Source of the DNA: Bdellovibrionota bacterium
GTDB lineage: Bacteria; Bdellovibrionota_G; JALEGL01; DATDPG01
DNA: 64,000 bases
Reading direction: 5' to 3'
Assembly (NCBI GenBank): GCA_035292885.1
Contig: DATDPG010000019.1
Span: 59,570-123,569 of the forward strand
A program made the position numbers and the translations under genes. The notes beneath the pieces were generated by a model that was not told the DNA's origin, did not search any database, and worked only from the letters and a program-made list of their open reading frames with translations. Every line of letters starts with the position of its first letter. Position 1 is the first letter of the stretch. Shown here one piece after another: positions 6,490 through 49,189 of this stretch.

Positions 6490-8175
6490 TCAAGAAGGAC
6501 CCGAAAACTGGCTGACGAGCGTTTCTAGTTGCTCTGGTTTCATCTCGAGATGCAAGCTGACGCTATGTTTCCGCTGGTCGACGGGCTGGCAGACGACAAC
6601 TTTTCCTTTCAATAGAATCCGCTGAAACGTGTGAGGAAGGTGGATTCGAACGAAAACCGTTTCACCGGTCTCTACGAAACGTTCCGACTCTATGAACATT
6701 CCGCCATGTTTCATGTTCCTTTCGAATTCCACCCGAAGCGCGTCGGCGGTCATAAAAAAAACATCCAGGACAACAAGATCAGGTTCATTTCGTTCCTGTT
6801 GTTCGGACGGGTCGTGGTCTTGAAGGTGGTTTTGGATGTAATGATTCAGAGCGGCAATGCCGGATTGTGGAATCTCCGTGAACCGGAGCGCGGCGAATGT
6901 TTTTTTGTCTTTCGAGACCTCATAAAGAAGCCGGCCGACGCCACGAACCTGGGCGTATCCGGCGCCCAGGTGAACGACGACGGGATATTCCTGCCCACGC
7001 CGGGGGACCAACCCTTCCCACTTTACGAGCATTCCGCCGCAACTTAGCTCGCGAACTTCGAATTGAACCTTTGCCCGCTGGACCGTGTCGATGAGGTCCG
7101 TTTGGATCGCCGCCGTTTCCGTGGAAATGCGCGGATGCTTTCGGCGGTCGGCTTGGGCGAGCAAAGATTCCAGATTGGAAGAAGCGTTGGCGGCAGCCCT
7201 ATCGGCTTTGTCCGAAGTTCGAAACTCATTCAATTTAGCCGTCCATTCTGCATCCAGGACTCGTAAGCGATTTGTAAAACGCTCATGAAAATAACCGGTT
7301 ACTTCCGTAAGTTCCGTCAACGGCTGCTGGGAAAAGTGAACGTGAAATAAATGCCGCTCAAACTCGTCCACGGTTTTGAAACGCATCTCCAGTTCTTTGC
7401 CCAATGCACGATTGAAAAAGATCCGAAGAACGTTTTCATCATTTGAGCTTCGAACCAGATCTTTGCAGGGAAGGCGAGGGATCGAACCCTCCTCGATCGC
7501 GCGCGTTAGGTCAATTTTGCTGGTCCCTTCGAAGGGGCGTTGACCGAAGAAGAGATAGAACGCCAAGACGCCAAGCGAGTAGATGTCCGTTCCGGTGCTG
7601 GGTGCCGCACCTTTGAAAACCTCAGGGGGAAGAAAAGCGAGCTTTCCAAAGTGTCGGTGTGTGGCATCGGCAAAGCTTTCCTGCCCGGCGCTTCCAAAAT
7701 CGACGATGCGGATCGTGCCGTCCTGAGCGATCATCACGTTGTCCGACGATAAATCGCCATGGAACAGAACGGAATTCGAGTTCTCAAAGATGGACGTTCG
7801 GTGAAGATAACGGAGGGCCTGGCAACAATCTCGGATCAAATAAAGGGAAAGCGGCAGGGGCACTTTTTGTCCCGCCTGCTGATAATCGTCGATCAGTTGC
7901 TGAACGCTTCCGCCAAGCAAAAGCTCCATGACCAGGAAGTACGTGTCGTTTATCCGTCCTTGATCGAGAATGGGAAGGATGTTGGGATGGCGCAATTTCG
8001 AACCGATCCGAACTTCACGAATAAAGTCCGCCACGGCCTGAGGTTCATGAACTCGTTCGGCTTTCAGGCATTTAACCGCATACGGCTGTTGATCCTTTAC
8101 TCCAAGGTAAACATTGGAGAGCCCCCCTTCGCCGATCTTGTGGATTAGATGGTATCTGCCGAGACGAGGGGGCAT
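6490..8175 (-). CDS. Hanks-type Ser/Thr protein kinase fused to two C-terminal PilZ-like domains
   Basis: Kinase motifs: IGEGGLSNVY (G-loop), YAVKCLK, HGDLSSDNVMI (atypical catalytic loop), VDFGSAG, LPPEVF. C-terminal region: RRKHPR...ELSCGGMLV (PilZ RxxxR / DxSxxG-like), then a second PilZ-like beta-barrel segment HGGMFIESERFVETGETVFVRIHLP. Confidence 0.8.
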   Translation of the reverse strand: MPPRLGRYHLIHKIGEGGLSNVYLGVKDQQPYAVKCLKAERVHEPQAVADFIREVRIGSKLRHPNILPILDQGRINDTYFLVMELLLGGSVQQLIDDYQQAGQKVPLPLSLYLIRDCCQALRYLHRTSIFENSNSVLFHGDLSSDNVMIAQDGTIRIVDFGSAGQESFADATHRHFGKLAFLPPEVFKGAAPSTGTDIYSLGVLAFYLFFGQRPFEGTSKIDLTRAIEEGSIPRLPCKDLVRSSNDENVLRIFFNRALGKELEMRFKTVDEFERHLFHVHFSQQPLTELTEVTGYFHERFTNRLRVLDAEWTAKLNEFRTSDKADRAAANASSNLESLLAQADRRKHPRISTETAAIQTDLIDTVQRAKVQFEVRELSCGGMLVKWEGLVPRRGQEYPVVVHLGAGYAQVRGVGRLLYEVSKDKKTFAALRFTEIPQSGIAALNHYIQNHLQDHDPSEQQERNEPDLVVLDVFFMTADALRVEFERNMKHGGMFIESERFVETGETVFVRIHLPHTFQRILLKGKVVVCQPVDQRKHSVSLHLEMKPEQLETLVSQFSGPS

Positions 8176-12463: not shown

Positions 12464-12624
12464 CTTTTGAATTCTGCTCGGGTTGGCTTAAGCAAAACAT
12501 GATATGGAACAGGGTCGGGCTTAGGGGTCGGGCGAATCTTTCGCGAAACGGCGGAGTCATGTAAAAGACTGCGCGCTAAGATCGTGAGGTTGTTGTCGTC
12601 AGAAATTCAATCAGGAGGATCAGA

Positions 12625-12975
12625 ATGAAATCGCTTGTTGTGGTTTTGGGTGTTCTTTTCGCGTCGAGTGCCATGGCGCAAGACAAACTCGCCTCGCAGA
12701 AGGCGTTGTTCGATAAGTATTGCAAGAAATGTCATGCCGAGGATGGGAGTGGGAAAAAGCCCACCGGTGAATGGCTGCCGGTCGTAAAGACGCTTAAATT
12801 GGAAAAGCCGGAAATGTTGAGCATCATCTCGGATGAAGCCAAGAAGAAGACGGACGACGACATCAAGAAAATGATCCTGGAAGGAAAAGACAAGATGAAG
12901 GCGACCAAAGCGACGCCGGAAGAGGCGATTGAACTGGTCGCATACGTTCGTCATTTGCAGGGCGGCACGAAGTAA
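12625..12975 (+). CDS. Small periplasmic monohaem cytochrome c
   Basis: Signal peptide MKSLVVVLGVLFASSAMA and a single CKKCH. RBS AGGAGG. About 60% identical by eye to the protein at 45214..45588. Confidence 0.85.
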   Translation: MKSLVVVLGVLFASSAMAQDKLASQKALFDKYCKKCHAEDGSGKKPTGEWLPVVKTLKLEKPEMLSIISDEAKKKTDDDIKKMILEGKDKMKATKATPEEAIELVAYVRHLQGGTK

Positions 12976-13011
12976 CAAAGACCGTTTTTAGGCTGTTCAA
13001 AGCCGGTCAGT

Positions 13012-13311
13012 TTAGAGGCCGTTTGTGCCGTGGCAACCGGCGCAGGCGGCCTCGCCCTGTGTGCGGACGATTTCCTGTATCGCGTCCAGATCGATCCCGG
13101 CAAGCGAACTCTGATTACTCTGGTGGATGTTCTTCGGAAGGTGGCACCCGAAGCAATCTGAACGCTGCCACCCCGGCTGATGCTCTTCTTCCGTGAGAAT
13201 CAACGACTGCGGCGAGTTAATAATGTCTCCATAATTTTCGCCCGGACTGTCATGACCGCAGCCGCTCATGAGGACCGCGAGGAAGAAAAGGATGTACGTT
13301 GGGCGGGTCAA
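13012..13311 (-). CDS. Dihaem cytochrome c lipoprotein
   Basis: I moved the start to TTG 13311 (TTGA overlap with the upstream stop; RBS GAAAGGA 8 nt upstream). This gives MTRPTYILFFLAVLMSGC (lipobox). Two motifs, CFGCH and CAGCH. Confidence 0.7.
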   Translation of the reverse strand: MTRPTYILFFLAVLMSGCGHDSPGENYGDIINSPQSLILTEEEHQPGWQRSDCFGCHLPKNIHQSNQSSLAGIDLDAIQEIVRTQGEAACAGCHGTNGL

Positions 13312-13910
13312 AAGGAGATTCCTTTCTTCGTATGGCAATCCCGGCAAAACTGAATCTGATGGCACGAACCGCACGAATGAGGATTCGCCCGCGCTTCGAC
13401 GGAATGGACGTAAAGGAACGTGCGCGGATGGACGGTCTGAAGGATCGAATCACGCTGCATGTGGCAATCGACACAGCTCGATCGATCGTGGCACGTGGCG
13501 CAGGAAAACTCGTCCAATCGGGCGAAGACGGCGTGCCGCTGCGTCCAATCGAGACGATGGTCCGCCGGGATTAGCGGCCGGACATCCTTGTGACAGAGAA
13601 AACATCTTTGGGTGGCCTGCGCGGCCATCTCCGGTTTGCGATGACAGTCATGGCACTTCCATACCGGGCCGGCTTCGCTCGTTATTACGAGCGGTTTTAG
13701 GGCGTCGCGCTGCGGATGACAGCTCAAGCAATGGAGATTCTTCTCCTGAATTACAGGCGCATGAACGGCGTGGTTAAACAAAATGGATGGATGAACGGTT
13801 TGCTTGGGTGTGACCTGGCGCCAGTCCCCGGTGCGGACGCATCCGCCGATGATCGTAACGGCGATCGGCGCGATCCAGAAAAAATGTTGGCGTAGTTTAG
13901 AAATAAACAT
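13308..13910 (-). CDS. Heptahaem cytochrome c, probable lipoprotein
   Basis: MFISKLRQHFFWIAPIAVTIIGGC (lipobox-like). Seven motifs: CLSCH, CHDCH, CFLCH, CATCH, CVDCH, CGSCH, CRDCH, including paired CxxCH-x4-CxxCH units. The start overlaps the barrel gene stop by 14 nt. Confidence 0.85.
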   Translation of the reverse strand: MFISKLRQHFFWIAPIAVTIIGGCVRTGDWRQVTPKQTVHPSILFNHAVHAPVIQEKNLHCLSCHPQRDALKPLVITSEAGPVWKCHDCHRKPEMAAQATQRCFLCHKDVRPLIPADHRLDWTQRHAVFARLDEFSCATCHDRSSCVDCHMQRDSILQTVHPRTFLYVHSVEARANPHSCGSCHQIQFCRDCHTKKGISF

Positions 13911-15126
13911 AACGAGCCGAGACTCCCACGCGAACATCCGCCGTTTGATCGATGTTCGAATTGATTTCGCCGTTTACGCCGAGCTCAAGTCCCCATCGCC
14001 ATGCGTACAAGCATCCCAGGCCGGTGTGAAGAGCGTAATCTTCCGACCCGGTCACCTTGTCATATCGAGCGACGGCGAAAGATCCTCTGGCCCGCCATCC
14101 GAGCGAGATCTGTTTTTCGAGCGAGCTCGTGAATCCTCCGGATCGTCCGCCGTAACTATCCTGAAAGAATGCTCGGACGGAGGCGATCCAGGGGCGAACC
14201 CCCTCGATCCATTGAAACCCGCCATCCACCATATGGCCGTCCTCGGATCGGGTGGTCAGAACTTCATAACGTTGAAAACTGTACCCCGCCTGAACCGAAA
14301 GTTTCGAAGAGACTCGGTACGCCGCTGCACCTCTCCCTTGCCATTCCTCCCCCTGGGAAAAGAGCGTAAAAATCCGGTCCTGCCATTCGAAATTATCGCG
14401 GGATTCGTTGTATCGGGCGAACTCTCCGGAGAGGAGCAAGGCATCCATGGGGAAGAGTTCAAGTCCTGCACGACCTGATCCGAAAAGGGTTTTGTCCGCC
14501 AGGTAATCGATCGAACCATATAATAGAGGCGTCCAAAAAAACGGGAGCGCTTGTTTGGCTCCGGCCACGATCCATTGCCGGTGGACTGTCTCCAGATCGT
14601 CTTCATACCGATACCCCATCGTCAGTGTGGTCGAGGAGAACGGTTGCAGCGTCAGGTCGGCGCCGATCAACGTGGATTCTTCGTCGAAATCGGAAATTTC
14701 AGGATGCCTTCGCAAGCCGCCGAAGAGACGTCCCGATATTCGTCTCCGGGTACCCAGAGAAACTTGCGCGCCGTCGAGAAGGATCAGCGACTCGAACGGG
14801 TTCGCCAGAAATCTCCCCGCCTGGGCGTTCATTCCCCATTCGGGCCGATTCCACGAAACACTCGCTTGGTAAAGATCGGCCTTGTTGTCCGGATTTATCA
14901 GATTGGACAAAATCTGGCCGTCCATTGAAAATTCCCCTTGCAGCGGGGAAATTGGGGCGCTCAGGCGAAGGCGATTCACCCACGGGAGTTCCCGGTCTCC
15001 GATCAGATTTTCCCGGATCTGATTATACGATCTGAGTTCGACGGTCGGACCGGCCCAAGAGAGTGTTGGAGCAAGAATGACCATCCATCCCAGCGTCCGA
15101 TACACCCCTCGAAAAAGAAATGGCAT
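13897..15126 (-). CDS. Outer-membrane beta-barrel (porin component of a porin-cytochrome module)
   Basis: Signal peptide MPFLFRGVYRTLGWMVILAPTLSWA, alternating amphipathic strands, and a C-terminal ...VSARYVYF (aromatic terminus). Paralogous by eye to 49972..51312 (AGRFLANPFESLILLDG vs AGRQFRQEFESLYFDG). Confidence 0.65.
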   Translation of the reverse strand: MPFLFRGVYRTLGWMVILAPTLSWAGPTVELRSYNQIRENLIGDRELPWVNRLRLSAPISPLQGEFSMDGQILSNLINPDNKADLYQASVSWNRPEWGMNAQAGRFLANPFESLILLDGAQVSLGTRRRISGRLFGGLRRHPEISDFDEESTLIGADLTLQPFSSTTLTMGYRYEDDLETVHRQWIVAGAKQALPFFWTPLLYGSIDYLADKTLFGSGRAGLELFPMDALLLSGEFARYNESRDNFEWQDRIFTLFSQGEEWQGRGAAAYRVSSKLSVQAGYSFQRYEVLTTRSEDGHMVDGGFQWIEGVRPWIASVRAFFQDSYGGRSGGFTSSLEKQISLGWRARGSFAVARYDKVTGSEDYALHTGLGCLYAWRWGLELGVNGEINSNIDQTADVRVGVSARYVYF

Positions 15127-15203: not shown

Positions 15204-16301
15204 ATGATCAAAGAAATGCGCGCTCGGCATCCATTGGGGTTGTGGAGTCTTATTTTCACGTTGCTGAGTGTTTCCCCGGCGCTGGCGGAAAAGGAGAAAC
15301 CTAAGAGCGGCTGTATCGCCGAGGGATGCCATGCCGTTCTCATGAACGCGAAAGTCGTGCATTCGGCGATCGAGGATGGCGCATGCGACGGATGCCATAC
15401 ACCTTCGGAGGGGAGCAGTCCCGACCAGGCGGGTGCCAAACATAAATTCGAGAAGATCGACGTCGGCCAGGCCTGCGGAGATTGCCATGAGGCCGCGAAA
15501 GACAAATCGATTCACAAGCCGTACGGCGAAGCGAAGTGCACCGCTTGCCACAATCCGCACTCGTCCGACCAGCCGGCTTTGTTGCGGGAAGAGTCGCCGG
15601 CACTTTGCCAGCCATGCCACGAAAAGATCGCCGCAATTTCCTCGCGAGGTTCGAGCGATCATCTGGTGGCCGACGGAAAACTCGCCTGCCTGAGCTGTCA
15701 CGAAGGTCACCTGTCGAAAATACCGAAACTTCTCCGAAAATCGCCGAAAGAACTCTGCTTGGGATGTCACAACAAGGAAATCTCGACACCTCAGGGAACT
15801 CTGGTCGATATCGCCGGTAAGCTCACCGACAAAAAAGCGACCGTCCATGACCCCGTCGCCGATGGGTGCGTCTCTTGCCATAATCCGCATGGGAGCGAAC
15901 TCCCGCGGCTCCTCGTCCGTTCGTATCCGACGGCCTGGTACGGCAATCCATCGATTTCTGCGTACGGCCTCTGTTTTGAGTGCCATGAAGCGGCCGGTTT
16001 TGAAGCCAAGGAGACCGAGGAGGGGACGGCGTTTCGAAACGGCAAGAAAAATCTCCATGCGGTCCACATCTTGAACGATCCGCTGGGCCGCTCCTGTTCC
16101 GCCTGCCACGACGTGCATGCGGCGGCGGGAGAGCACCTCATTCCGTCGCAAGTTCCCTTTTTCGGTTTCTTGGTTCCCACGAATTTCAAGACGGCGGAGA
16201 ACGGCGGCAGCTGTTTCCCGGGTTGCCATGAAGCGAGAGCCTACGATCGCTTGGAGGCTGTGCCTCTATCTAAGCCGGACTCGGGACACCCGAAACCTTA
16301 A
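15204..16301 (+). CDS. Periplasmic multihaem cytochrome c (9 canonical + 2 non-canonical motifs)
   Basis: Start taken at MIKEMRARHPLGLWSLIFTLLSVSPALA. Canonical motifs: CDGCH, CGDCH, CTACH, CQPCH, CLSCH, CLGCH, CVSCH, CFECH, CSACH. Non-canonical: CIAEGCH (CX4CH) and CFPGCH (CX3CH). Repeated CHNPH signature. Confidence 0.85.
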   Translation: MIKEMRARHPLGLWSLIFTLLSVSPALAEKEKPKSGCIAEGCHAVLMNAKVVHSAIEDGACDGCHTPSEGSSPDQAGAKHKFEKIDVGQACGDCHEAAKDKSIHKPYGEAKCTACHNPHSSDQPALLREESPALCQPCHEKIAAISSRGSSDHLVADGKLACLSCHEGHLSKIPKLLRKSPKELCLGCHNKEISTPQGTLVDIAGKLTDKKATVHDPVADGCVSCHNPHGSELPRLLVRSYPTAWYGNPSISAYGLCFECHEAAGFEAKETEEGTAFRNGKKNLHAVHILNDPLGRSCSACHDVHAAAGEHLIPSQVPFFGFLVPTNFKTAENGGSCFPGCHEARAYDRLEAVPLSKPDSGHPKP

Positions 16302-16406
16302 GAACCAAACGGCATCCGGTCAAAATAGTTTCCGTACGAGAACTGATACAAATCATGGTTCACAAGGAGGCGTTCTGTTCTCCTAATTCTAGTAACCGGA
16401 ATTCAT

Positions 16407-16910
16407 TTGGAACCGAACGGAAGATGGCTTTTGTATGCGTGTTGTTGCGTAGGGTCGGCACTGATCGTCTCCGGATGTCAGAGCGGGAGCGGTCAGCCGA
16501 TTCAATACAATCATAAAGTTCACGTGGAAGAGGCGGGAATGGATTGCGTGTCGTGCCACGTCAACGTCCAGAGCGGCGCCCGCGCCACGATTCCGAACAT
16601 CGACGTATGCCAGGATTGCCATTCCGAGGAGCCTTCGGCGGATAAAACGGAACTGAAGAAGTTATTCTCTTATACTTCGTCGAATAAAAAGATTCCTTGG
16701 CGGAAGGTTTACCGTGTGGACGCGCATATCTTTTTTTCGCATCGAAGGCACGCGGTTCTCGGGAACATTTTGTGTGAAACATGTCACGGAAAGGTTGGGG
16801 AGAAAATGACTCCGGTGACCGGACGGGCCGTGGCCATCACGATGAAAGGTTGCATGGATTGCCATGAGAAGAGGGGGGTAGCTAATGACTGCCTTCTTTG
16901 TCACCGGTGA
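16407..16910 (+). CDS. Pentahaem cytochrome c lipoprotein (ActA/QrcA-like)
   Basis: TTG start. LLYACCCVGSALIVSGC lipobox. Motifs CVSCH, CQDCH, CETCH, CMDCH, CLLCH. Sits directly upstream of the molybdopterin-family subunit. Confidence 0.8.
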   Translation: MEPNGRWLLYACCCVGSALIVSGCQSGSGQPIQYNHKVHVEEAGMDCVSCHVNVQSGARATIPNIDVCQDCHSEEPSADKTELKKLFSYTSSNKKIPWRKVYRVDAHIFFSHRRHAVLGNILCETCHGKVGEKMTPVTGRAVAITMKGCMDCHEKRGVANDCLLCHR

Positions 16911-16939
16911 GGCGGAGCGGACAGGAGACCTGAAACGAC

Positions 16940-19444
16940 ATGGCGAATATTGACCGAAGAAAATTCCTGAAGATCCTCGGCGCGAGCGCGACTGGAACGG
17001 CGCTGGGGGGTACGGCAACGGGCGCCATGGCCTGGCTTTGGAAGGTCCCGGACCACCTAATTGAAGAAGCGTTGCGTGGACCCGGGTTCGAGACGTTCAA
17101 GAATTCCGTCTGTCAATTGTGCCCGGCGGGTTGCGGCATACGGGTCCGACTGATCGATAACATCCCCGTCCGGATCGACGGGAATCCGACACACCCGATC
17201 AATCGTGGAGGCATCTGCCCGCAGGGCGCGGCCGGCCTCGATTTTCTGTTCCATCCCGATCGGATTCAGACGCCGCTCATCCGTGTGGGGCCGAGGGGGA
17301 AGGGGGAATTCAAAGCGATCGGTTGGGACGAGGCGCTGGGCAAATTGGCTGAACGTTTGGGAACCCTACGACAGAAAAGAACCCCCGAGCAGCTGGCCTG
17401 CTTCGTTTACGAAAAACGCGGGTTGATGCACGAAACGATCGGTCGATTCATGGACGGATTCGGATCGCGAAATTTGATCGCAACGGACGACGGGGAGCAC
17501 GATTATCTGCCCTATCAGCTCCTCTTCGGCTGGAAGAACCTGCCGGCGTACGACATCGAGAATGCGCGCTACCTGCTGAGTTTCGGCGCGAACATTCTGG
17601 ACGACGGCGTTTCTCCGCTGCACGCGATTCACGGATACCGGAAAATGAGGGAAGGCGCCGCCGGGGAACGGGGAAAGTTTGTTTTCGTGGATTCCCGGCA
17701 TTCCGTGACCGCCGCCAGCGCGGATGTTTATCTGCCGATCCTGCCCGGAACCCACGGAGCGTTTGCGCTTGCCGTGGCGTATGTGTTGATCAAAGAACGG
17801 CATCTCGATACGGCGTTTCTCCGCGACCACGTCGACGGCTTTGAGTCCTGGACCGACGACCGGGGGAATCGTCACGCGGGCTTCAAGGACTATGTCCTCG
17901 CGGACTTCTATCCCGAACGCGCCGCGAAGATCACCGGAGTTCCCGCGGAGAGAATCATCGACGTGGCCCGGAACTTCGGAAGAACGCGCCTGTCGTTGGC
18001 AGTCGTGGGAAATTTGGGCACCGATACGACCAACGGCCTCTGGAACGCGCTCGCGGTTCTCTCGCTGAACGTTCTCGTCGGGAATATCGAAACCAAGGGG
18101 GGCCTTCTTGTTCCGCGGGCGGCACCGTTTTCAAAACTCCCGGTCGTTCGTCCGGATGAAATCGCGAAGCGAGGGCTGAACAAACCTCTCCTCTTCGAAG
18201 CCGAGAATCGCCAGGCTCCCTTGGTTTCCGACTCCATGGGCCTCGCGTGCGAACGGATGGCCAAAGGCGAACCGTATTCCATCGATACGCTCTTGGTCTA
18301 TGGCACCAACCCTGCGTTTGACCACCCGTACGCGAAGAGTGTTCGCAAAGCGCTCGAGAAGATTCCGTTCATCGTCTCGTTTTCGGGAATTCGGGACGAG
18401 ACTGCGGAATATGCCGATCTGATCCTCCCCGATCATGCGTTTCTCGAAAAATGGTTCGATAGTGCCGACACGCCCGGCATCAAGTTCGCTCACGCGTCGG
18501 TCGGTTCCCCGGTAGTGAATCCCCTTTATCAAACCCGGCACACGGGAGATGTCCTGACGGAAGTTGCGGCGAAGCTGGGAGGGAGTGTGGCCCAGGCATT
18601 TCCACAATCGGATTTCCTTTCGGCCTTGCAGCAAAAGTTCAAGGGGATTTTCGCTTCCGGCGAGGGAACCGTCGTATCGGGCTCGTTCGAGGAATCGTGG
18701 GCGCAGTTCCTTAAAGAGCGGGGCTGGCAGAACCTCGTCTACGAGTCCTTCGAAGGTTTCTGGAAGGTATTGGCGGAGCGCGGCGGGTGGTGGGATCCGA
18801 CGCAGGATGTGATGTCTATCAAAGAAGCGATTCAGACGCGCACGGGGAAAATTATGCTCCGGCTCGACGAGCTTCAATCCAAAGCAAGTGAAGCGGCACG
18901 ATCCGTGGGTAAGGAAAATACCTCCCCTGAAGCCGCAAGCCGGATACTGGCTGCCTGGGGAATTCGAGAAACCGCTGACGCCGCCTTTCTTCCACACTAC
19001 GAGGAGCCCACGTTCACGGGCGAAGTAAAAGAGTTCCCGTACGTGTTGGTCACGTTCGGCTTGCTTTCAAATCGCAGAGGTTTCGGCTCATTTTCGCCGT
19101 TGCTCCAGGAAATGTTTGGTTATCCCGAGCGGATTTACTGGGATTCTTGGGTGGAATTGAATCCCCATACGGCGCACGAGCATCATCTTGTTTCGGAAGA
19201 CTGGGTGAAAATCTCGTCGCCGGCGGGGTCGCTTCGCGCGCGGGTTGTTTTCAATGAAGCGTTGGAGCCCCATACGGTGGCCGTACCGTTCGGCATGGGT
19301 CATACGTCCGGCGGGCGTTACGCCAAGGGCGTGGGTGTGAATCCCTATGAGATTCTGACGGAAGTGAGCGACGTCTTGCGGGGAAAGCCGGCGAAAGTCG
19401 CGACGCGCGTGAAAATTGAGAAATCCGAAAGGAAGGTCCGCTAA
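16940..19444 (+). CDS. Molybdopterin-oxidoreductase-family large subunit (PsrA/ActB1/QrcB-like), Tat-exported
   Basis: Twin-arginine signal MANIDRRKFLKILGASATG. FS0-type motif CQLCPAGC-x27-C. 834 aa with family-typical blocks (GWDEALGKLAERL, LLSFGANILD, LVYGTNPAFDHP). Confidence 0.85.
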   Translation: MANIDRRKFLKILGASATGTALGGTATGAMAWLWKVPDHLIEEALRGPGFETFKNSVCQLCPAGCGIRVRLIDNIPVRIDGNPTHPINRGGICPQGAAGLDFLFHPDRIQTPLIRVGPRGKGEFKAIGWDEALGKLAERLGTLRQKRTPEQLACFVYEKRGLMHETIGRFMDGFGSRNLIATDDGEHDYLPYQLLFGWKNLPAYDIENARYLLSFGANILDDGVSPLHAIHGYRKMREGAAGERGKFVFVDSRHSVTAASADVYLPILPGTHGAFALAVAYVLIKERHLDTAFLRDHVDGFESWTDDRGNRHAGFKDYVLADFYPERAAKITGVPAERIIDVARNFGRTRLSLAVVGNLGTDTTNGLWNALAVLSLNVLVGNIETKGGLLVPRAAPFSKLPVVRPDEIAKRGLNKPLLFEAENRQAPLVSDSMGLACERMAKGEPYSIDTLLVYGTNPAFDHPYAKSVRKALEKIPFIVSFSGIRDETAEYADLILPDHAFLEKWFDSADTPGIKFAHASVGSPVVNPLYQTRHTGDVLTEVAAKLGGSVAQAFPQSDFLSALQQKFKGIFASGEGTVVSGSFEESWAQFLKERGWQNLVYESFEGFWKVLAERGGWWDPTQDVMSIKEAIQTRTGKIMLRLDELQSKASEAARSVGKENTSPEAASRILAAWGIRETADAAFLPHYEEPTFTGEVKEFPYVLVTFGLLSNRRGFGSFSPLLQEMFGYPERIYWDSWVELNPHTAHEHHLVSEDWVKISSPAGSLRARVVFNEALEPHTVAVPFGMGHTSGGRYAKGVGVNPYEILTEVSDVLRGKPAKVATRVKIEKSERKVR

Positions 19445-20131
19445 ATGCCGCGATGGGGAATGGTGATCGATCTCGATAAGTGCACCGGCTGCGGCGCTTG
19501 CGTGGCCGGGTGCAAAGTGGAGAACAATGTCGCCGTCGGCTCGGCTGAACTCGGGCGGGAAAACCGAGCCATGTTCTGGATGGAGATGGTGAAGTTCGTG
19601 GAAGGGGAACACTATCCCGATGTGCGGATTCGGTACGTGCCGCGGCCTTGCTTTCAATGCGACAACCCACCGTGCACCCGTGTTTGTCCCGTCCGCGCGA
19701 CGTATCTCTCCGATGAGGGGATTGTGGCCCAAATCTACGCCCGCTGCATCGGATGTCGCTATTGCCAAGCGGCCTGCCCGTACACCGTCAAGTCTTTCAA
19801 CTGGTACGAGCCGAAGTGGAGCCAAGAACGGTCCAGTTGCTTGAATCCCGATGTGTCTCAGCGGCCGAAAGGGGTCGTGGAGAAGTGCACGTTTTGTCAC
19901 CACCGCCTGCAGGTGGCGCGGGAGAAAGCACGGGCCGAAAACCGATCTCTCCGCGAGGAGGATTACAAAGTGGCTTGCCAGGACGCCTGTCCGGCCGGAG
20001 CGATATTGTTCGGAGACTTGGAAGACAAGTCGACGCAGGTGTTCAAGCTCAGCAAGAGTCCGCGTGCCCAACGTCTCATGGAAGATCTCGGAACCGAGCC
20101 GAAGGTCTTCTACCTTTCGAGGGGAGGATGA
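19445..20131 (+). CDS. 4Fe-4S ferredoxin-type subunit (PsrB/NrfC/ActB2-like)
   Basis: WGMVIDLDKCTGCGACVAGCKVENN, RPCFQCDNPPCTRVCP, CIGCRYCQAACPY, KCTFCHHR. The start abuts the upstream stop (TAAATG). Confidence 0.9.
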   Translation: MPRWGMVIDLDKCTGCGACVAGCKVENNVAVGSAELGRENRAMFWMEMVKFVEGEHYPDVRIRYVPRPCFQCDNPPCTRVCPVRATYLSDEGIVAQIYARCIGCRYCQAACPYTVKSFNWYEPKWSQERSSCLNPDVSQRPKGVVEKCTFCHHRLQVAREKARAENRSLREEDYKVACQDACPAGAILFGDLEDKSTQVFKLSKSPRAQRLMEDLGTEPKVFYLSRGG

Positions 20132-20132
20132 C

Positions 20133-21485
20133 ATGAAAGCCCGGCCGGAAGATCTGGGAGCGGAGGAACATCTCCTCAAACCGCTTCATCGGGTTTCCCC
20201 GAAGCTTCTCGTTCTTTGCGGCCTGCTTTTCCTGGCGGTTCTCAACATGCTCTTCGCCTTCGCGGGACAGGTTTGGTTCGGTCTCGGTGTCACCGGAATG
20301 AATCAGCCGGTGACGTGGGGTTTCTATATCGTCAACTTCGTCTTCTTCATCGGGATCAGCCACGCGGGGACGCTCATTTCCGCGATCCTGCGCTTGTCAC
20401 AGGCTGAATGGAGGCGGCCCATCACGCGAATGGCGGAAGTCATTACGGCCCTCGTTCTTGCGATCGGCGGTATCCAGCCGATCATCGATCTGGGAAGGCC
20501 GGACCGGGTCTTCAATATCTTTACGTCGGGCAGACTCCAGTCGCCGCTTTTGTGGGATGTGACGTCGATATCGGCCTATTTTATGGCCAGCACGGTCTTT
20601 CTCTATTTGCCCCTCATTCCGGATATCGCGCTTCTTCGGGACCGGGGAGGAAAGCTTCGCTGGGCCTACGACCTGATGTCCTGGGGATATCGCGGGACGG
20701 AACGCCAGAAGCACGTGCTGGAACGAGCCATGACGATCATGATGATCATTGTCATCCCGATCGCCGTATCCGTTCATACGGTGATCTCCTACATCTTCGC
20801 CATGACGATTCAGCCGGGGTGGCACAGCACGATCTTCGGCCCTTATTTCGTGTGCGGGGCGATCTTTTCCGGAATCGCGGCGCTCTTGATCGTCATGATC
20901 GCCTTTCGGAAGGCCTATCACCTGGAGGACTACTTAAAACCCATTCACTTCTCCTACCTGGGACAACTTCTTTTGATCATGTCGCTCCTCTGGTTTTACT
21001 TCACGTTTTCGGAATACCTTACGGCCTTCTTCGGGAACGAACCGCAGGAACTTCGTGTCGTGAATTATAAATTTACGGGGGCATACTGGCCGCTCTTCTG
21101 GGGGATGATCGTCGCGAACTTCGTCATTCCGGTGGCTCTTTTGAGTTCACCCAAAATCCGAACCATCCCGAACATCTTGGTGGCGTCGATCTGCGTGGTG
21201 ATCGGAATGTGGCTGGAGCGATTAAACATCGTGGTTCCGTCGCTCGCGAATCCGAGGCTCCCATACGCGACGGGCTTCTATATTCCCTCGTACACCGAAT
21301 GGTCCCTTTTCTTAGGGATGGCGGCGCTTTTCGTCTTGATGTTCATCGGCTTCTCCAAGTTTTTCCCGCTCATCTCGGTTTGGGAAATTCAGGAAGGGAG
21401 GACGCACGGCGTGAAAGAGGTGACCGAAAGGGTCGAGAGCTACCTTCCTCCGATGGCGCTCGAAGGAAAGGGGCGGGATTCATGA
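20133..21485 (+). CDS. NrfD/PsrC/ActC-like polytopic quinone-interacting membrane subunit
   Basis: The track ORF 19851.. is an extension overlapping the FeS gene. The real start is MKARPEDLG at 20133, 1 nt after the FeS stop. 450 aa with about 10 TM helices (GFYIVNFVFFIGISHAGTLISAILRL etc). Confidence 0.8.
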   Translation: MKARPEDLGAEEHLLKPLHRVSPKLLVLCGLLFLAVLNMLFAFAGQVWFGLGVTGMNQPVTWGFYIVNFVFFIGISHAGTLISAILRLSQAEWRRPITRMAEVITALVLAIGGIQPIIDLGRPDRVFNIFTSGRLQSPLLWDVTSISAYFMASTVFLYLPLIPDIALLRDRGGKLRWAYDLMSWGYRGTERQKHVLERAMTIMMIIVIPIAVSVHTVISYIFAMTIQPGWHSTIFGPYFVCGAIFSGIAALLIVMIAFRKAYHLEDYLKPIHFSYLGQLLLIMSLLWFYFTFSEYLTAFFGNEPQELRVVNYKFTGAYWPLFWGMIVANFVIPVALLSSPKIRTIPNILVASICVVIGMWLERLNIVVPSLANPRLPYATGFYIPSYTEWSLFLGMAALFVLMFIGFSKFFPLISVWEIQEGRTHGVKEVTERVESYLPPMALEGKGRDS

Positions 21486-21715
21486 CGAAAAAGAAAATTC
21501 TTTTTTTCAGCCAGCTCGTCTCTCTGGCGGGGATCTGGGTCTTCGTCTTGGGAATCAGCGTCTGGATTCTCCATCTCATCCGGATGGCCAACAAGCTTCA
21601 TGACGCTCCGACGGCGTCCGTATCGATCAGCCTGGTGGCCATTCCCGTCTTTCTCACAGGCGCGAGCGTGCTGACATATGTCTTCGTCGGCATACAGAGA
21701 GGTGGAAAGGAATAA
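21482..21715 (+). CDS. Small two-TM membrane protein (ActD-position subunit)
   Basis: ATGA overlap with the NrfD-like stop. MTKKKILFFSQLVSLAGIWVFVLGISVWIL...ISLVAIPVFLTGASVLTYVFVGI. Confidence 0.55.
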   Translation: MTKKKILFFSQLVSLAGIWVFVLGISVWILHLIRMANKLHDAPTASVSISLVAIPVFLTGASVLTYVFVGIQRGGKE

Positions 21716-21719
21716 TGCG

Positions 21720-22931
21720 ATGAACGGGCGGATTCCGATGGCCGTGTTCACCGTCGTTTTGGGCGCATCCTTCATGCTCGGCGGCTTCGCTCGGAGTGAG
21801 GAGGAGAATTGGCTTCCATCGGAGCCGCTCAAGGGGCGAGTTGTCTTCGAGCAAAAGCACTGCCCGCAGTGCCATTCGATCGGAGGCGCGAAAGGCGGGG
21901 TCGGTCCCGATTTAGCCGAAGCGGGAACGTATTTTCACGGGAGCTTTCTCCAGCTCTCATCCATTTTATGGAACCACATTCCGGACATGCTGGTGGAATA
22001 CAAAACGCGAAATCTTTCTTGGCCGAGTTTCTCCGAGGACGAGGTCGGCTATCTGATTTCCTATCTGTACTATCTGCGATACTTGGGAAGCCCGGGCGAT
22101 GTCGCCAACGGCCAGCGCCTCCTCCAGACGAAAGGGTGCGTCGCCTGTCATGCCGTCGGGAAACAAAAAAAGGCGGGGGACGCGCCTCCGCTGGATCAGC
22201 TCAAGAAATATGTTTCGCCGCTCTACCTGGTGCAGGCGGTTTGGAATCACGGGCCCCGGATGCAGCGGATGATCGAACAAAAGGGAATCAAGCGGCCGAC
22301 ATTCGACGGTCAGGAAATCAGCGACATGAGCGCGTACATCCGCAACGTAAGCCGCTGGAACACCGAGGAGAAAGTGTATCTCTCCCCGGGCGATCCGAAG
22401 AACGGAGAACGGGTGTTTGAAAGCAAGGGGTGCGTCAAGTGTCACTCCGAACAAAGGGGGAGGAAGCGGGCGCCGTCGCTGGAGAAGTCGAGCCTGAATG
22501 AGAGCGCGGCGGGCATCGCGGCGCTGATGTGGAACCATGCGGATGTCATGATGAGTTCGATGAAAGAGGAGAAAATCAGCTGGCCGACGTTCGAAGGGCG
22601 CGAGATGCCCGATCTGGTCGCATACCTGTTCTTTCTGGATTTTCTGGAACCGCCGGGAAACGCCGCAAAGGGCAAGGAGCTATTCGGCCAGAAACAATGT
22701 TCCTACTGTCATTCGATCCACGGAGCCGGGGGTACCATCGGACCCGATCTCGCGGTCGTCGGTTCTCTTTCCTCCACCCGGTCGATCCTCCGGATGATGG
22801 TGAATCACGCGGAAAACATGTCGGAAGCCGTCCTGGGCGCCGGGAAAGCCTGGCCGGTTCTGGGCGGTGACGAGATGAATAACATCTTCGCGTACTTAAA
22901 AAGCGTCGAACGGAAAGAAAAAAAGAAATAG
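21720..22931 (+). CDS. Tetrahaem cytochrome c built from four tandem class-I-like domains
   Basis: Start MNGRIPMAVFTVVLGASFMLGG (RBS GGAAAGGA). CPQCH, CVACH, CVKCH, CSYCH, each about 100 aa apart and each followed by a (W/V)NHxxxM motif. Paralog at 37130..38365. Confidence 0.85.
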   Translation: MNGRIPMAVFTVVLGASFMLGGFARSEEENWLPSEPLKGRVVFEQKHCPQCHSIGGAKGGVGPDLAEAGTYFHGSFLQLSSILWNHIPDMLVEYKTRNLSWPSFSEDEVGYLISYLYYLRYLGSPGDVANGQRLLQTKGCVACHAVGKQKKAGDAPPLDQLKKYVSPLYLVQAVWNHGPRMQRMIEQKGIKRPTFDGQEISDMSAYIRNVSRWNTEEKVYLSPGDPKNGERVFESKGCVKCHSEQRGRKRAPSLEKSSLNESAAGIAALMWNHADVMMSSMKEEKISWPTFEGREMPDLVAYLFFLDFLEPPGNAAKGKELFGQKQCSYCHSIHGAGGTIGPDLAVVGSLSSTRSILRMMVNHAENMSEAVLGAGKAWPVLGGDEMNNIFAYLKSVERKEKKK

Positions 22932-26427: not shown

Positions 26428-28017
26428 GTGAAGCGTTCGGCCCAGGTCGTTCAACCGGTACCGCCTTCTGGGGAGGTGGGGCGGGAGTATCCGGGCTTAT
26501 ACGAAGAACTCGACCAGCTGCGACGAAAGCGGTTGACGCTGGTGGCTACCGTCGGCGCGTTGATGTGCCTCACGATTCAAGTGATCAACTTCTGGACCCA
26601 AGCCGGCCCGCGGATCTATCCGCGGATGGAACCGGAGATCCTCGATCGGGCCACACTGCTCTTTCACGCCGCTTCGTTTCTTTCAGCCGCTTTCCTGTTT
26701 CGAATTCGTTCGCTTCAGACACAGACGGTTCTCGCTCTCGATCTCCTCTTGTTTGGGTTGAACATTCTCGCTCGATCCCTTGCGACGATCTGCATCGTTG
26801 AAACGGGCGATCATTTTCCGGGAATCGAGGGTATTTCCCTTGCGGTGATTTTGCATGGGGTATTCGTTCCGACCGGTATCACGATACCGATTGTGCTCGG
26901 CGCCTTGGCCACGATCTCCTTCCCGTTGGCCCAAATCGCGGGTTTACACTGGTTCGACTCGATCGCCGCACATTGGCAACAAGTAAGTGGGGCGGAGCCG
27001 TTTGCGTTCTTGCTTACTTTGAACACGCTTACGATCGCCTTTTTCGCCTTTCTCGGCGTTCTGGCCAACCGCGTTTTTTACGGCCTCGCCCGGGACGCCT
27101 ACCGCGCCAAACAGCTTGGGAATTATCTCATTGAAGGGGAACTCGGTTCGGGCGGGATGGGAAAAATTTTGATCGGACGGCATCGTCTGATGCGCCGGCC
27201 GACGGCGATCAAAGTTTTGCGGGCCGAGTTTTTGGGCGGGCCGGAAGCCTTGGCTCGTTTCGAGCGCGAAGTCGAACTGGCGTCAAAGCTTACGCATCCC
27301 AACACAATCGCCATATATGATTTCGGACGTTCGGCCGACGGAACCTTTTACTACGCCATGGAAATGCTCAAGGGGTTAAACCTCCAGGAACTCGTGGATC
27401 AATACGGTCCTCTTCCCTCGCCGCGGGCCGTGCATATCGTAAAGCAAATTTGCGGATCGCTGGCGGAAGCGCATTCGATGGGTGTCGTCCATCGCGACAT
27501 TAAACCGAGCAATATTTTTCTCACGCAGCGCGGAGGTCTGGACGACTTCGTCAAAGTCATCGATTTCGGTTTGGCCAAACAGGTCGCCACGCCCGACGTG
27601 CCGGGTGAGGGCCTTACGGAGGCCGGGCGTCTGTTCGGCACGCCGCATTTTATGGCGCCGGAGACGGCATACGGAGCCGATCGAGCGAGTCCTCAGTCCG
27701 ATATCTACAGCCTGGGCGCGGTCGCTTATTGGCTTGTAACCGGAAAGCGGCTCTTCGACGGCACTCCGGCGGAAATATTGGCCGCGCATGTGAAGACGGT
27801 ACCGAAGCCGCCTTCAAAAGTTTCAGAGGTTCAGATTCCGGCCTCACTCGAACAGACGATACTTACCTGCCTAAAGAAAAAACCGGAGGAGCGACACAAA
27901 TCGGCGATGGAAATCTTCACCGCGCTGGACGGCATCGAAGGGACATCACGTTGGTCAAACGCACAAGCGAGAGAGTGGTGGGAGATCCACCATCCGGGTC
28001 TGTTCACGCATCTTTGA
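26428..28017 (+). CDS. Membrane Ser/Thr protein kinase (N-terminal ~6-TM domain + Hanks kinase)
   Basis: LGSGGMGKILIG, AIKVLR, HRDIKPSNIFL, DFGLAK, GTPHFMAPE. Paralog of 30270..31850. Its 3' end overlaps the convergent gene by 14 nt. Confidence 0.85.
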   Translation: MKRSAQVVQPVPPSGEVGREYPGLYEELDQLRRKRLTLVATVGALMCLTIQVINFWTQAGPRIYPRMEPEILDRATLLFHAASFLSAAFLFRIRSLQTQTVLALDLLLFGLNILARSLATICIVETGDHFPGIEGISLAVILHGVFVPTGITIPIVLGALATISFPLAQIAGLHWFDSIAAHWQQVSGAEPFAFLLTLNTLTIAFFAFLGVLANRVFYGLARDAYRAKQLGNYLIEGELGSGGMGKILIGRHRLMRRPTAIKVLRAEFLGGPEALARFEREVELASKLTHPNTIAIYDFGRSADGTFYYAMEMLKGLNLQELVDQYGPLPSPRAVHIVKQICGSLAEAHSMGVVHRDIKPSNIFLTQRGGLDDFVKVIDFGLAKQVATPDVPGEGLTEAGRLFGTPHFMAPETAYGADRASPQSDIYSLGAVAYWLVTGKRLFDGTPAEILAAHVKTVPKPPSKVSEVQIPASLEQTILTCLKKKPEERHKSAMEIFTALDGIEGTSRWSNAQAREWWEIHHPGLFTHL

Positions 28018-30256
28018 GTAATTCTTTGAGAGCAGATCGTTCTTCGTCCGAGGCAAAGAGCGTGGCTCCGGTCTTTAGAAGGTCGGAAACGACATGGTCG
28101 ATCGGTCGAACGGTTTTTCGCTTTTGTTCATCGCTCAGATCGCCGATAAACGGCCACAGTCCCTTTTTCAGATCGGCGGGAAGGACCTGCTCCAGATATT
28201 CGAGGGCGAAGCTCCTGAGCTTTTCGTTCTCGAGAAGAATTCCATAATAGGCCGCCCGAACCGCCTCGGGCTCCAGCACCAGCGCCAACATACGGAAGGT
28301 ATGCTCGATCCCGAGCTCCCCTCGGCGTCCCACCCGTTCGGACACGAGATCATCCTCTTCCGGCTCGGTTTCATCCAAAAGCCGGTGCAGTTCCCAGACC
28401 GGCTTTCCACGGCTGACTTCCCCTTTCAAGGCTTCCCACACACCCGTCTTCCAATTTGTCTCCGACACCGGAAGGCCATGCTTTCGGCGGTTGGCTAAAG
28501 CGATCGCCGAACGATATCGAACTTCGAACCGTGAGTCTCCCAGAGCCACGACAAGCGCCTCATCCGCTTTGGCGATCGGAACTTTCGCCAGGACACGGGG
28601 GATTCTCCTGCGGATGACGAAATCGTTGTTTTCGTCCCGGAGAATCCCCGCCAACACGTGGAATCCGCCAGCCCCGACTCGAACCAAAGCGTGCGTGACA
28701 AGATCCTGAAGATCTTTTTGTGCCAGGAGACGGACGAGAGTCTCCGCATGGCTTTCATTCCAGTCCGTTTTCTCCATCAGCGCTTTTCGAACCTCGGTGG
28801 GATTTTTGGATTGAATCCGTTCCAATGTCGTGCTCTTCGTTGGCGTGACCGGCGCTTGAGAGACTTTGGCTGCACCCGAGGGTGGAAGGAGACCTCGGGC
28901 CTCCAAGTCGGCGGCTATACCCAGCCGGCTGAAGGTCGCCGTCAAAAGCCCTCTCCCCTCAAATCGGGCATCCGCCAGCATTCGTTCCGGTTCCGCCTTA
29001 TCCCGCAGCTGTTGAACGAGCGTCTCAAAATACTTCCTTCCGATTTGCCGGCTCAGCCCCAAGAAACCGAGGGCTGAGACTCCCACAAGAATCGAAAGGT
29101 ATTTGGAGGGAAGGCCTCCCAAGGTGATGCATAGAAAAATGAGTCCCGATCCGGCCCCTTCGGCAGCCGCGTCGACCAAAGAATCAATGAAGGTCTTCGT
29201 TTTTCGCCGGACCTGCGTGGGAAGAGGGATGTACACAACTTCGACGGCCGACCGAAAAATGGATTTCCGGATCGAATTGTCCGCGCCGCGCGCCAACGTG
29301 GCCGCTATTAATCCGGGCAAGAGAAAAAGCCCGGTGGAGCCGGCCAGCAAAACCATCGGCAGAACTGCGAACGTGGTCCCGACACCCGTCCTCGCCAAAA
29401 GCGGCGCTGTAACAACGACCTGAAGAAGAAGAGAAATAAGGCCGGTCCAACCGTAGAAGCTCCCGAAAAACCCGGCCAGCTGTTCCCTCGACTGCAAGGA
29501 AGCTCGAACTTGTTCCTTGAATTGATAGTCGAGGAGCGTGCTCGCTAACGTTGCCGCGAAAACGATTGAAGCCAACGTCCGCAGATGCTCGTTCCGCCAT
29601 ACGAGATGCAAGCTCTCACGCGTACTGGTCCGTTCGCCCTCCTTTTCCTTAGGGTCCATGTCCTTTCGCGCCGGAAGCAGGACTTGCAGAAGCAAAAAGA
29701 GGCCGACAAGCCCAATTAACGCCGGGATCATTTGAACGAGGCCGATCTGTTTGATCAGCGGCTTGATGGACGTACCCAGAGTGAGGGCGCCGATGGTCCC
29801 TCCGGCGCTGATTAACGCAAACAAACGCTTGGCGCGGCGAATCGGAAAAAATTCCGCCGTGACCACCCAGAAGCCGGAGGTCAAGACGAATGCGCCCAGC
29901 GCCGTCCAGAGGTAAAAGACAACCACGGCGGAAGCATTTTGCGTCGCAACCGGCCAAAGTGCGAGAAGGCCCATCGCGAATAGAAACACCGCGTAACGAA
30001 GGACACGTTGAGCTCCGTACCGGGCCATAAGTTTGGAAAACGTCCCAATCGTTGGCAACGCCAGAACCACGACGGCGGTCGTGATATACGGGAGCGTCTT
30101 GACGTCGAATGTGCCAAGGTAGAGGGCCTCACGAAGGGAGCGCCCGAGAATCATCATTCCGACGACGAAAAACGCGCCGAGAAAACAGAGAGCAACCGTA
30201 GGGAACTCGCCCGGCCTTATGTCAAGCCAACTTGTGAGCCGCTGGGCGGGTTTCAT
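28004..30256 (-). CDS. MFS/TLC-like (nucleotide-transporter-like) permease fused to a C-terminal HEAT-repeat domain
   Basis: N-terminal region of about 420 aa with about 12 TM helices (IRPGEFPTVALCFLGAFFVV...LREALYLGTFDVKTLPYI). C-terminal soluble region has HEAT-like repeats (IPRVLAKVPIAKADEALVVALGDSRFEVRYRSAIALA). Confidence 0.55.
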   Translation of the reverse strand: MKPAQRLTSWLDIRPGEFPTVALCFLGAFFVVGMMILGRSLREALYLGTFDVKTLPYITTAVVVLALPTIGTFSKLMARYGAQRVLRYAVFLFAMGLLALWPVATQNASAVVVFYLWTALGAFVLTSGFWVVTAEFFPIRRAKRLFALISAGGTIGALTLGTSIKPLIKQIGLVQMIPALIGLVGLFLLLQVLLPARKDMDPKEKEGERTSTRESLHLVWRNEHLRTLASIVFAATLASTLLDYQFKEQVRASLQSREQLAGFFGSFYGWTGLISLLLQVVVTAPLLARTGVGTTFAVLPMVLLAGSTGLFLLPGLIAATLARGADNSIRKSIFRSAVEVVYIPLPTQVRRKTKTFIDSLVDAAAEGAGSGLIFLCITLGGLPSKYLSILVGVSALGFLGLSRQIGRKYFETLVQQLRDKAEPERMLADARFEGRGLLTATFSRLGIAADLEARGLLPPSGAAKVSQAPVTPTKSTTLERIQSKNPTEVRKALMEKTDWNESHAETLVRLLAQKDLQDLVTHALVRVGAGGFHVLAGILRDENNDFVIRRRIPRVLAKVPIAKADEALVVALGDSRFEVRYRSAIALANRRKHGLPVSETNWKTGVWEALKGEVSRGKPVWELHRLLDETEPEEDDLVSERVGRRGELGIEHTFRMLALVLEPEAVRAAYYGILLENEKLRSFALEYLEQVLPADLKKGLWPFIGDLSDEQKRKTVRPIDHVVSDLLKTGATLFASDEERSALKELLKDA

Positions 30257-49163: not shown

Positions 49164-49189
49164 GTTTTCTCTCCCTCTCATGAAAGTTC

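Follow-up and report, generated by a model that had tools for sequence, protein, structure and literature searches.

The window analysed here is a 64-kb stretch of the genome of a Bdellovibrionota bacterium (contig DATDPG010000019.1), and positions 15204-22931 of it hold seven same-strand genes, G1 to G7, with short gaps or overlaps between them. We read the products of G2 to G7 as six subunits of one inner-membrane complex that belongs to the lineage of alternative complex III (ACIII), has a split B subunit and no ActF, and would work as a proton-translocating quinol:cytochrome c oxidoreductase; on the sequence evidence laid out below, the probability of this reading is put at about 0.7. The cluster is not a new kind of system. 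It is a variant of the ACIII/Qrc lineage that is known, widespread and biochemically uncharacterised, and each of its unusual features has already been recorded in genome papers, piecemeal, as annotation (PMC12342949; PMC9386147; PMC4643136). No biochemical work on the ActF-less split-B type was found in the literature. The seven genes are as follows:

15204-16301 (+), G1: periplasmic multihaem cytochrome of the DmsE/MtrA/GSU2203-like kind, with nine CXXCH motifs, one CX4CH and one CX3CH
16407-16910 (+), G2: ActA-like pentahaem cytochrome c with five CXXCH motifs and a lipobox-like IVSGC signal peptide
16940-19444 (+), G3 (B1): 834 aa, Tat-signal (twin-arginine translocation) member of the molybdenum-bisPGD (Mo-bisPGD) enzyme family with an ArrA-like fold
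19445-20131 (+), G4 (B2): 228 aa, four-cluster ferredoxin-type iron-sulfur (FeS) protein with four complete Cys groups
20133-21485 (+), G5: NrfD-family protein of the ActC type, with predicted quinol site and proton half-channels
21482-21715 (+), G6: 77 aa, two hydrophobic (transmembrane) helices, in the ActD position
21720-22931 (+), G7: membrane-anchored tetrahaem protein, four class-I cytochrome c domains, in the ActE position

A first-pass annotation of this DNA had described the same gene order, motifs and junctions, and every detail of that description is present. G3 and G4 meet at a TAAATG junction, G5 and G6 overlap at ATGA, and G7 more likely starts at 21720 than at the alternative 21678, with a GGAAAGGAA site lying upstream of 21720. 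Scanning for promoters and terminators returned sites no more numerous than in shuffled sequence, and the gap from G1 to G2 had none. Related loci, 89 in all, were gathered from metagenomes and GTDB species genomes, in part with a search profile built from 9 close sequences, and the first 85 were gene-typed with phmmer. G2 to G7 are a six-gene module, and G1, although it heads the operon here, stands outside the conserved module.

The membrane subunit had been labelled NrfD/PsrC-type. The NrfD part of this label holds, but the PsrC part does not. In a search of Protein Data Bank (PDB) chains, G5 matched ActC of Rhodothermus marinus (6f0k_C) with 250 bits (E 4e-73, residues 29-420) and ActF with only 49 bits, and no PsrC chain was found among its matches. 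The residue list that Sousa et al. compiled for ActC (PMC5928083) was then mapped onto G5 through the HMMER alignment. All 14 residues of the cytoplasmic half-channel are identical to those of R. marinus ActC, as are five of the six in the periplasmic half-channel and five of the six in the hydrophobic quinol pocket, together with D169 and S245. Ser164, for which a role in quinone coordination has been proposed in ActC (PMC8076601), is kept in the G5-ActC alignment as well. Because of these match scores and the conserved pocket and channel residues, G5 can be assigned as an ActC orthologue rather than a PsrC-type protein, and as a quinone-reactive subunit that is probably proton-conducting. 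The cytochrome G2 likewise finds its best PDB matches among ActA chains (8k9e_A, 6lod_A and 6f0k_A, E 3e-21 to 1e-18).

Canonical ACIII contains ActF, a second NrfD-like subunit. The first-pass annotation saw none here, and searching throughout the 64-kb window for a second, ActF-like NrfD gene gave none. It had also proposed a search for actF in other genomes in the same context; the loci with the module have no second NrfD either, save where a separate NrfD cluster adjoins, as canonical ACIII does in L077. In that Gemmatimonadota locus, a canonical ACIII with fused ActB, ActC and ActF (L077:1-7213) lies directly upstream of the ActF-less module (L077:7280-13708).

The large subunit G3 demands closer attention. 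It carries a Tat motif (DRRKFLK) and, as had been noted, an intact CQLCPAGC-x27-C motif of the FS0 type (C58-x2-C61-x3-C65-x27-C93), whose four Cys are invariant and present in every full-length homologue of G3. Its best sequence match is ArrA (227 bits over the full length), followed by PsrA (153 bits) and the N-terminal part of ActB (66 bits). The AlphaFold2 model, with a predicted local distance difference test (pLDDT) score of 87.8, gave the same order, with ArrA 6cz7 as the best structural match at a template modelling (TM) score of 0.82 and then PsrA at 0.69; ActB chains were absent from the first 50 structural matches. The Pfam domains Molybdopterin, Molybdop_Fe4S4 and Molydop_binding all score above cut-off. 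From this description alone, G3 resembles a catalytic enzyme, and the first-pass annotation had left it unclear whether it was one or a scaffold, since it could see no Cys, Sec or Ser that might bind molybdenum. The alignment that it had proposed was made against ArrA, PsrA and ActB, and the missing ligand was confirmed: when G3 is aligned by HMMER with ArrA (SSVCAEAH) and with PsrA (SLCTA), their Mo-ligand Cys is opposite a three-residue gap in G3 (IATDD---GEHDY), and none of the residues 179-196, between N178 and G197, is invariant or near-invariant among 25 homologues.

Two further positions bear on the cofactor. In enzymes of the FdhH and Nap type, the pterin is connected to FS0 by a basic residue, Lys or Arg, that follows the fourth FS0 Cys, and the Asp of a PGTD motif lies in the dinucleotide-binding domain. 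G3 reads CPQG after its fourth FS0 Cys, with Gln instead of the basic residue, and PGTH instead of PGTD, with His for Asp. Neither change is peculiar to the window. Among 47 G3 proteins from modules with G6 and G7, the PGTD Asp is found in none and the basic residue in three; the ligand loop is shortened, and any Cys at all is present there in a single protein (L006), where it was judged to lie off the ligand position. Plain three-gene relatives, comprising a Mo subunit, an FeS subunit and NrfD, mostly have CPK/RG and a longer loop; in several of them the ligand Cys or the Asp of PGTD is retained, and a gene for a TorD-like chaperone accompanies one. The loss of Mo-site residues thus tracks the gain of the cytochrome subunits, and B1 is therefore argued to be non-catalytic. 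With three cofactor positions lost together and a membrane subunit of the ActC type, the evidence leans clearly towards G3 as a predicted non-catalytic scaffold that keeps one [4Fe-4S] site, FS0.

The first-pass annotation had described the FS0 motif as lost in non-catalytic ActB and QrcB. For ActB this agrees with our alignment, in which the proteins of Rhodothermus and Chloroflexus lack all four Cys. For QrcB, the Desulfovibrio vulgaris protein is reported to have no redox cofactors (PMC13059093). All four FS0 Cys are retained, however, in the fused Gemmatimonadota ActB that lies beside a module copy (L077:618-3620). Four FS0 Cys were also seen in three Desulfobacterota proteins that pass the QrcB cut-off (L084:7995-10430, L062:7995-10457 and L085:2188-4560), and FS0 loss may be the exception rather than the rule across the Qrc/ACIII lineage. 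A neighbour-joining sketch, drawn without bootstrap from reference fragments copied out of the HMMER alignments (the PsrA fragment was dropped), placed ArrA outermost, then the catalytic-type three-gene enzymes, and then Qrc together with the module clade. Canonical ActB came out on a long branch inside the module clade in this sketch, a placement that is tentative and may be a long-branch effect.

The partner of G3, the FeS subunit G4, has as its best PDB match the C-terminal B2 part of ActB (6f0k_B, 201 bits). It has no signal peptide of its own and is presumably exported together with G3. A [3Fe-4S] proximal cluster classically arises when the group III Cys is lost, as is known from work on DmsB and NarH. 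In G4 this group reads CIGCRYC, compared with CIGTRYC in Rhodothermus ActB and CVGTRYC in the fused Gemmatimonadota ActB of L077. In a tally of 78 proteins, made up of higher-scoring relatives and ActB, the motif was complete in 70. Since its four Cys groups are complete, G4 is predicted to hold four [4Fe-4S] clusters, like PsrB and ArrB, and to differ from ActB and QrcC, which each hold one [3Fe-4S] (PMC8076601). In two relatives (L037:10563-11258 and L068:8521-9216), group III of the FeS subunit is CIGVRMC and a [3Fe-4S]-type site is predicted; this suggests that a change to the [3Fe-4S] type arose more than once in the lineage. That B1 and B2 are encoded separately could in principle have resulted from a sequencing frameshift, a caveat attached to the original observation of the split. 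The frameshift was ruled out, as the two-gene layout recurs in more than 70 independent loci, and every locus with the module encodes B1 and B2 apart.

The last two subunits are less easily connected to known proteins. G6 is well conserved in its own family, with 56% mean column identity and 17 invariant positions in an alignment of 21 sequences, and the family counts 53 cluster representatives among 1.8 billion proteins. Among PDB chains, ActD and G6 did not match by phmmer or by profile, and matches of G6 to GLIC channels were dismissed as chance transmembrane matches. Unlike ActD, which has cytoplasmic beta-alpha-beta motifs and a Glu122 in its second transmembrane helix, the 77-residue G6 has neither, there being no Glu in its helix 2. 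Its likeness to ActD is one of position and topology, and homology is not claimed. G7 had been noted as a tetrahaem protein in the ActE position, and it does have four CXXCH motifs, in four class-I domains. ActE is a monohaem lipoprotein, whereas G7 is a membrane-anchored protein with four haems, and no specific match between the two was found among PDB chains. G6 and G7 always move together, permuted clusters included, and they are fused in two natural proteins (P0243 and P0271), a parallel to the ActDE fusions known in Ignavibacterium (PMC3362086). In two others the G5 C-terminus is joined to G6 (P0259 and P0274), although these may be fragments or read-through gene calls. Such fusions indicate that G5, G6 and G7 would associate.

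A second tetrahaem class-I cytochrome, related to G7, lies further along the window:

37130-38365 (-), G7': G7 paralogue, 35% identity

It matches genes of four relatives (L001:6174-7454, L006:2824-4053, L002:14387-15616 and L033:5544-7856) with 465-484 bits. G7' is the orthologue of the gene found directly upstream of G2 in the closest relatives, displaced by 14 kb here. In the window it adjoins other multihaem genes.

The module was found in most of the 89 loci and in at least seven phyla, in each case in an uncultured organism. Its carriers belong to Ignavibacteria/Bacteroidota, Acidobacteriota, Gemmatimonadota, Fidelibacterota, Krumholzibacteriia, Calditrichota and Rhodothermales and include a Nitrospirota metagenome-assembled genome (MAG), whose homologue (P0043) is 42-44% identical and has the same gene order. 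In the Ignavibacteria/Bacteroidota the order is often permuted to G6-G7-G2-G3-G4-G5. In the closest relatives (L001, L006, L087 and L088), B1 is 56-63% identical to that of the window. No cultured carrier appeared among the roughly 240 best database matches to the window G3 and to its homologue from an 'Ignavibacterium album' MAG, all of which are metagenomic. I. album, M. roseus and C. abyssi have 'Psr/Phs-like' clusters in the literature, but these could not be confirmed as the module and were dropped as candidates. A histidine kinase and a sigma-54-dependent response regulator were seen beside the module in three loci (L001:2047-5074, L002:3193-6381 and L089:17842-20229); these three are distant relatives, and no such pair was seen beside the window operon.

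How does the module compare with better-known systems? Structures of canonical ACIII are available for R. marinus (6F0K), Flavobacterium johnsoniae (6BTM), Roseiflexus (6LOD) and Chloroflexus (8K9E). Like these complexes, the cluster has a pentahaem ActA-like protein (G2), a B2-type FeS protein, an ActC-type NrfD protein and a B1 without Mo-site residues, and a two-helix small subunit followed by a c-type cytochrome occupies the ActD-ActE positions. It is unlike them in that B1 and B2 are separate, in the FS0 Cys and full ArrA-like fold of G3, in having no ActF, and in the predicted absence of [3Fe-4S] from G4, given that ACIII B2 holds one [3Fe-4S] and three [4Fe-4S] clusters (PMC8076601). 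The catalytic Arr and Psr enzymes (ArrAB 6CZ7, PsrABC 2VPZ) share with the cluster FS0, Tat export and an FeS subunit predicted to be all-[4Fe-4S], and ArrA is the best match of G3. In contrast to them and to Phs, the cluster has no Mo-ligand Cys, no K/R and no PGTD Asp, and it has cytochrome subunits and an ActC-type anchor.

QrcABCD has the same four-gene core in the same order, namely a multihaem protein, a separate Mo-pterin-like B, an FeS protein C and an NrfD protein D. Among NCBIfam families, the Qrc models give G2, G3 and G4 their highest scores, none of which reaches the cut-off (95 bits against 180 for QrcA, 320 against 440 for QrcB and 306 against 400 for QrcC), and the QrcD model scores G5 at 39 bits against a cut-off of 570, so that all four cut-offs are failed by the window proteins. 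Desulfobacterota relatives, on the other hand, pass that of QrcB with 517-544 bits and therefore anchor the true Qrc clade. The cluster further differs from Qrc in its ActC-like rather than QrcD-like NrfD protein, in the five haems of G2 compared with six in QrcA, in having no [3Fe-4S] motif, and in the additional G6 and G7. The kinship with both ActA-ActB-ActC-ActD-ActE and QrcABCD put forward in the first-pass annotation was correct, and G2, G4 and G5 match ACIII best. That annotation had also spoken of a hybrid complex. The kinship and the listed differences stand, but a one-off hybrid it is not, as the differences define a widespread conserved module.

Genome studies have come across similar clusters. 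An actAB1B2CDE arrangement without actF or actG was described in 47 Nitrospirales genomes and in other phyla, usually followed in the Nitrospirales by a bd-like oxidase (PMC12342949), as first noted for N. marina (PMC8115632). Cluster 4 of MBNT15 comprises ActABCD and an ActE-like protein with four haems (PMC9386147), and neutrophilic iron oxidisers have a split ActB1 with the motif CX2CX3CX27C (PMC4643136). Gene order, subunit set, split B and lack of actF and actG are shared between the window cluster and these ActF-less modules, while the iron-oxidiser clusters differ from it by containing actF. Unlike in the Nitrospirales, the decahaem-type cytochrome G1 heads the operon here and a porin-cytochrome module adjoins it instead of an oxygen reductase:

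13897-15126 (-): porin-like protein, 409 aa, starting at 15126, 77 bp from the G1 start at 15204
13308-13937 (-): 7-haem cytochrome, partner of the porin gene, divergent from the G1-G7 operon

The divergent spacing of about 77 bp agrees with the first-pass annotation.

For the proposed quinol:cytochrome c oxidoreductase, the following path may be envisaged. Menaquinol would bind in the periplasmic-side pocket of the ActC-like G5, and its electrons would pass to the proximal cluster of G4, on to the five haems of G2 and from there into G7, whose four class-I haem domains, of high potential, would hand them to a periplasmic or terminal acceptor. Protons would move through the conserved half-channels of G5. 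G3 would serve as a Tat-exported, non-catalytic scaffold that carries G4 across the membrane, with FS0 as the most distant cluster of the FeS wire, and G6, with its two membrane helices, would tie G7 to G5. Extracellular electron transfer and the quinone pool are probably connected through the complex in this organism. The sequences show the homologies of the subunits, the conserved residues, the conservation of the module and the loss of Mo-site residues; which way electrons flow, what cofactors are bound, whether protons are pumped and how the porin module is linked are points that we infer.

Several observations weigh against this reading. By sequence and predicted fold, G3 is nearer to catalytic ArrA and PsrA than to the B1 part of ActB, and a missing protein ligand is in itself compatible with activity: arsenite oxidase is a Mo-bisPGD enzyme that works without any protein ligand to Mo. 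An all-[4Fe-4S] G4, if the prediction is right, differs from the [3Fe-4S]-holding ActB and QrcC, and its redox tuning may be different. Homology of G6 to ActD, or of G7 to ActE, could not be detected. The Nitrospira, MBNT15 and iron-oxidiser clusters were matched to ours by their descriptions, and the link by sequence is the Nitrospirota MAG protein P0043. Cofactor content and activity are, for every member of this module type, predictions from sequence. Finally, iron oxidisers have been proposed to run ACIII in reverse (PMC4643136).

This last point leads to an alternative that we regard as rather unlikely, in which the complex runs in the direction of Qrc and passes periplasmic electrons to the quinone pool, with proton-motive force consumed or generated according to the donor potential. 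The donor could be, for example, extracellular Fe(II), whose electrons would travel by way of the porin-cytochrome module, G1 and the tetrahaem class-I protein G7. Class-I cytochrome domains of the His/Met type are typical of Fe(II)-oxidation chains, and G1, the porin module and feoB are adjacent. The first rank of the Qrc models for G2, G3 and G4, albeit below cut-off, points the same way; Qrc reduces menaquinone with the same modules (PMC6303296), and the FS0-bearing split-ActB1 clusters of neutrophilic iron oxidisers have been proposed to convey 'uphill' electrons (PMC4643136). However, G5 is far nearer to ActC than to the QrcD model and also conserves the periplasmic half-channel of ActC. 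The oxygen reductase that follows the Nitrospirales cluster (PMC12342949) suggests quinol oxidation, and the association with porin and G1 is not conserved.

A different question is whether G3 might after all be catalytic, as a Psr/Phs/Ttr/Arr-type Mo/W-bisPGD enzyme that has an unconventional protein metal ligand or none and is fed electrons by the cytochromes. Its full-length, four-domain ArrA-like predicted fold, the three Pfam molybdopterin-type domains, the conserved FS0, the Tat signal and the acidic residues in the ligand loop would all suit such an enzyme. We hold it to be very improbable nonetheless: the ligand Cys falls in a deletion within a loop that has no conserved residue, the loss of the K/R and of the PGTD Asp coincides with the gain of G6 and G7 across the 47 sequences, the membrane subunit is ActC-type, and the cluster has no gene for a TorD-like chaperone such as is found with a catalytic-type relative. 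The first-pass annotation had also offered a DmsEFAB-like arrangement, in which an extracellular or outer-membrane molybdoenzyme is served by the adjacent porin-cytochrome conduit. The divergent module 77 bp away invited this comparison, as does a weak similarity of G1 to the NCBIfam DmsE family (93 bits, cut-off 192). But the cluster has its own quinone-reactive NrfD anchor in the inner membrane together with an ActA-like cytochrome, G3 lacks the catalytic residues, no homologue of the porin was found in the 85 related loci searched, and a G1 homologue lies near the module in just one of the 85 (L055). This arrangement is not supported and has hardly any likelihood left.

Because the porin is absent from the 85 loci and a G1-like gene occurs in one, the adjacency is lineage-specific, and the link to an outer-membrane conduit is, on this gene content, a local acquisition. 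In the closest relatives, the slot of G1 is taken by a tetrahaem class-I cytochrome. Such an acquisition fits a neighbourhood rich in electron-transfer cytochromes.

The role of the FeS wire has remained elusive even in canonical ACIII (PMC5928083). With FS0 kept and B2 predicted to be all-[4Fe-4S], the wire would have one more cluster here than there. One speculative answer, which we think rather doubtful, is that the five-cluster wire ending at FS0, under the vestigial substrate funnel of B1, is a working second periplasmic port, of lower potential, beside the haem wire. If so, three routes would meet in the complex: one to the quinone pool, one of high potential through the class-I cytochromes G7 and G7', and one along the FeS clusters, by which multihaem proteins, for instance G1 and the porin conduit, could be served. 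It would then also represent a living stage between reductases of the Arr/Psr type and ACIII. Molybdoenzyme scaffolds that turned into cofactor-less respiratory modules have been studied in two cases, ACIII and Qrc. The module described here keeps intermediate states: FS0 is present without the Mo-site residues, the clusters of the FeS subunit are all predicted to be [4Fe-4S], there is one NrfD protein, and the ActD-like hairpin is minimal. It thereby allows one to test on which features of ACIII quinol oxidation and proton translocation depend, and raises the questions of whether ActF and the 'cross-talk' of ActD Glu122 are dispensable and what the FeS wire is for.

There is a caution for annotation as well. 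The large subunits are labelled in databases as 'molybdopterin-dependent oxidoreductase', 'DmsA precursor' or 'selenocysteine-containing dehydrogenase', and such labels should not count as evidence of sulfur, arsenic or dimethyl sulfoxide (DMSO) respiration. What this window adds is modest: the type gains a further member, whose local link to a module for extracellular electron transfer is unusual; the value lies in the evolutionary intermediate and in this caution.

Relatives of the 7-haem cytochrome occur downstream of the module in about 10 loci. Multihaem relatives of some 400 aa were seen 2-5 kb downstream in Ignavibacteria/Bacteroidota and Fidelibacterota loci (L009:13932-15152, L010:16698-17930, L016:10545-11630, L024:11553-12905, L026:14642-15868, L046:14596-15834, L073:16431-17579 and others besides). 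In the window itself, further multihaem genes were observed:

39552-40916 (-): multihaem cytochrome
43237-45168 (-): 643-aa multihaem c-type protein fused to a cytochrome b561/Ni_hydr_CYTB domain, a CbcL-like architecture
45720-49262 (-): 1180-aa multihaem protein with a PKD-like domain

Two small open reading frames (12607-13374, -) lie between the 7-haem cytochrome and feoB. For the frame at 12607-12978 (-), which may not be a gene, no family matched, and that at 13012-13374 (-) has two CXXCH motifs and a lipoprotein-like N-terminus. Around the respiratory cluster, the genes at 6490-8175 (-), 26428-28017 (+), 30270-31850 (-), 28004-30256 (-) and 2357-3553 (+) comprise three eukaryote-type Ser/Thr kinases, a TLC-family ATP/ADP-transporter-like gene and an NnrS gene.

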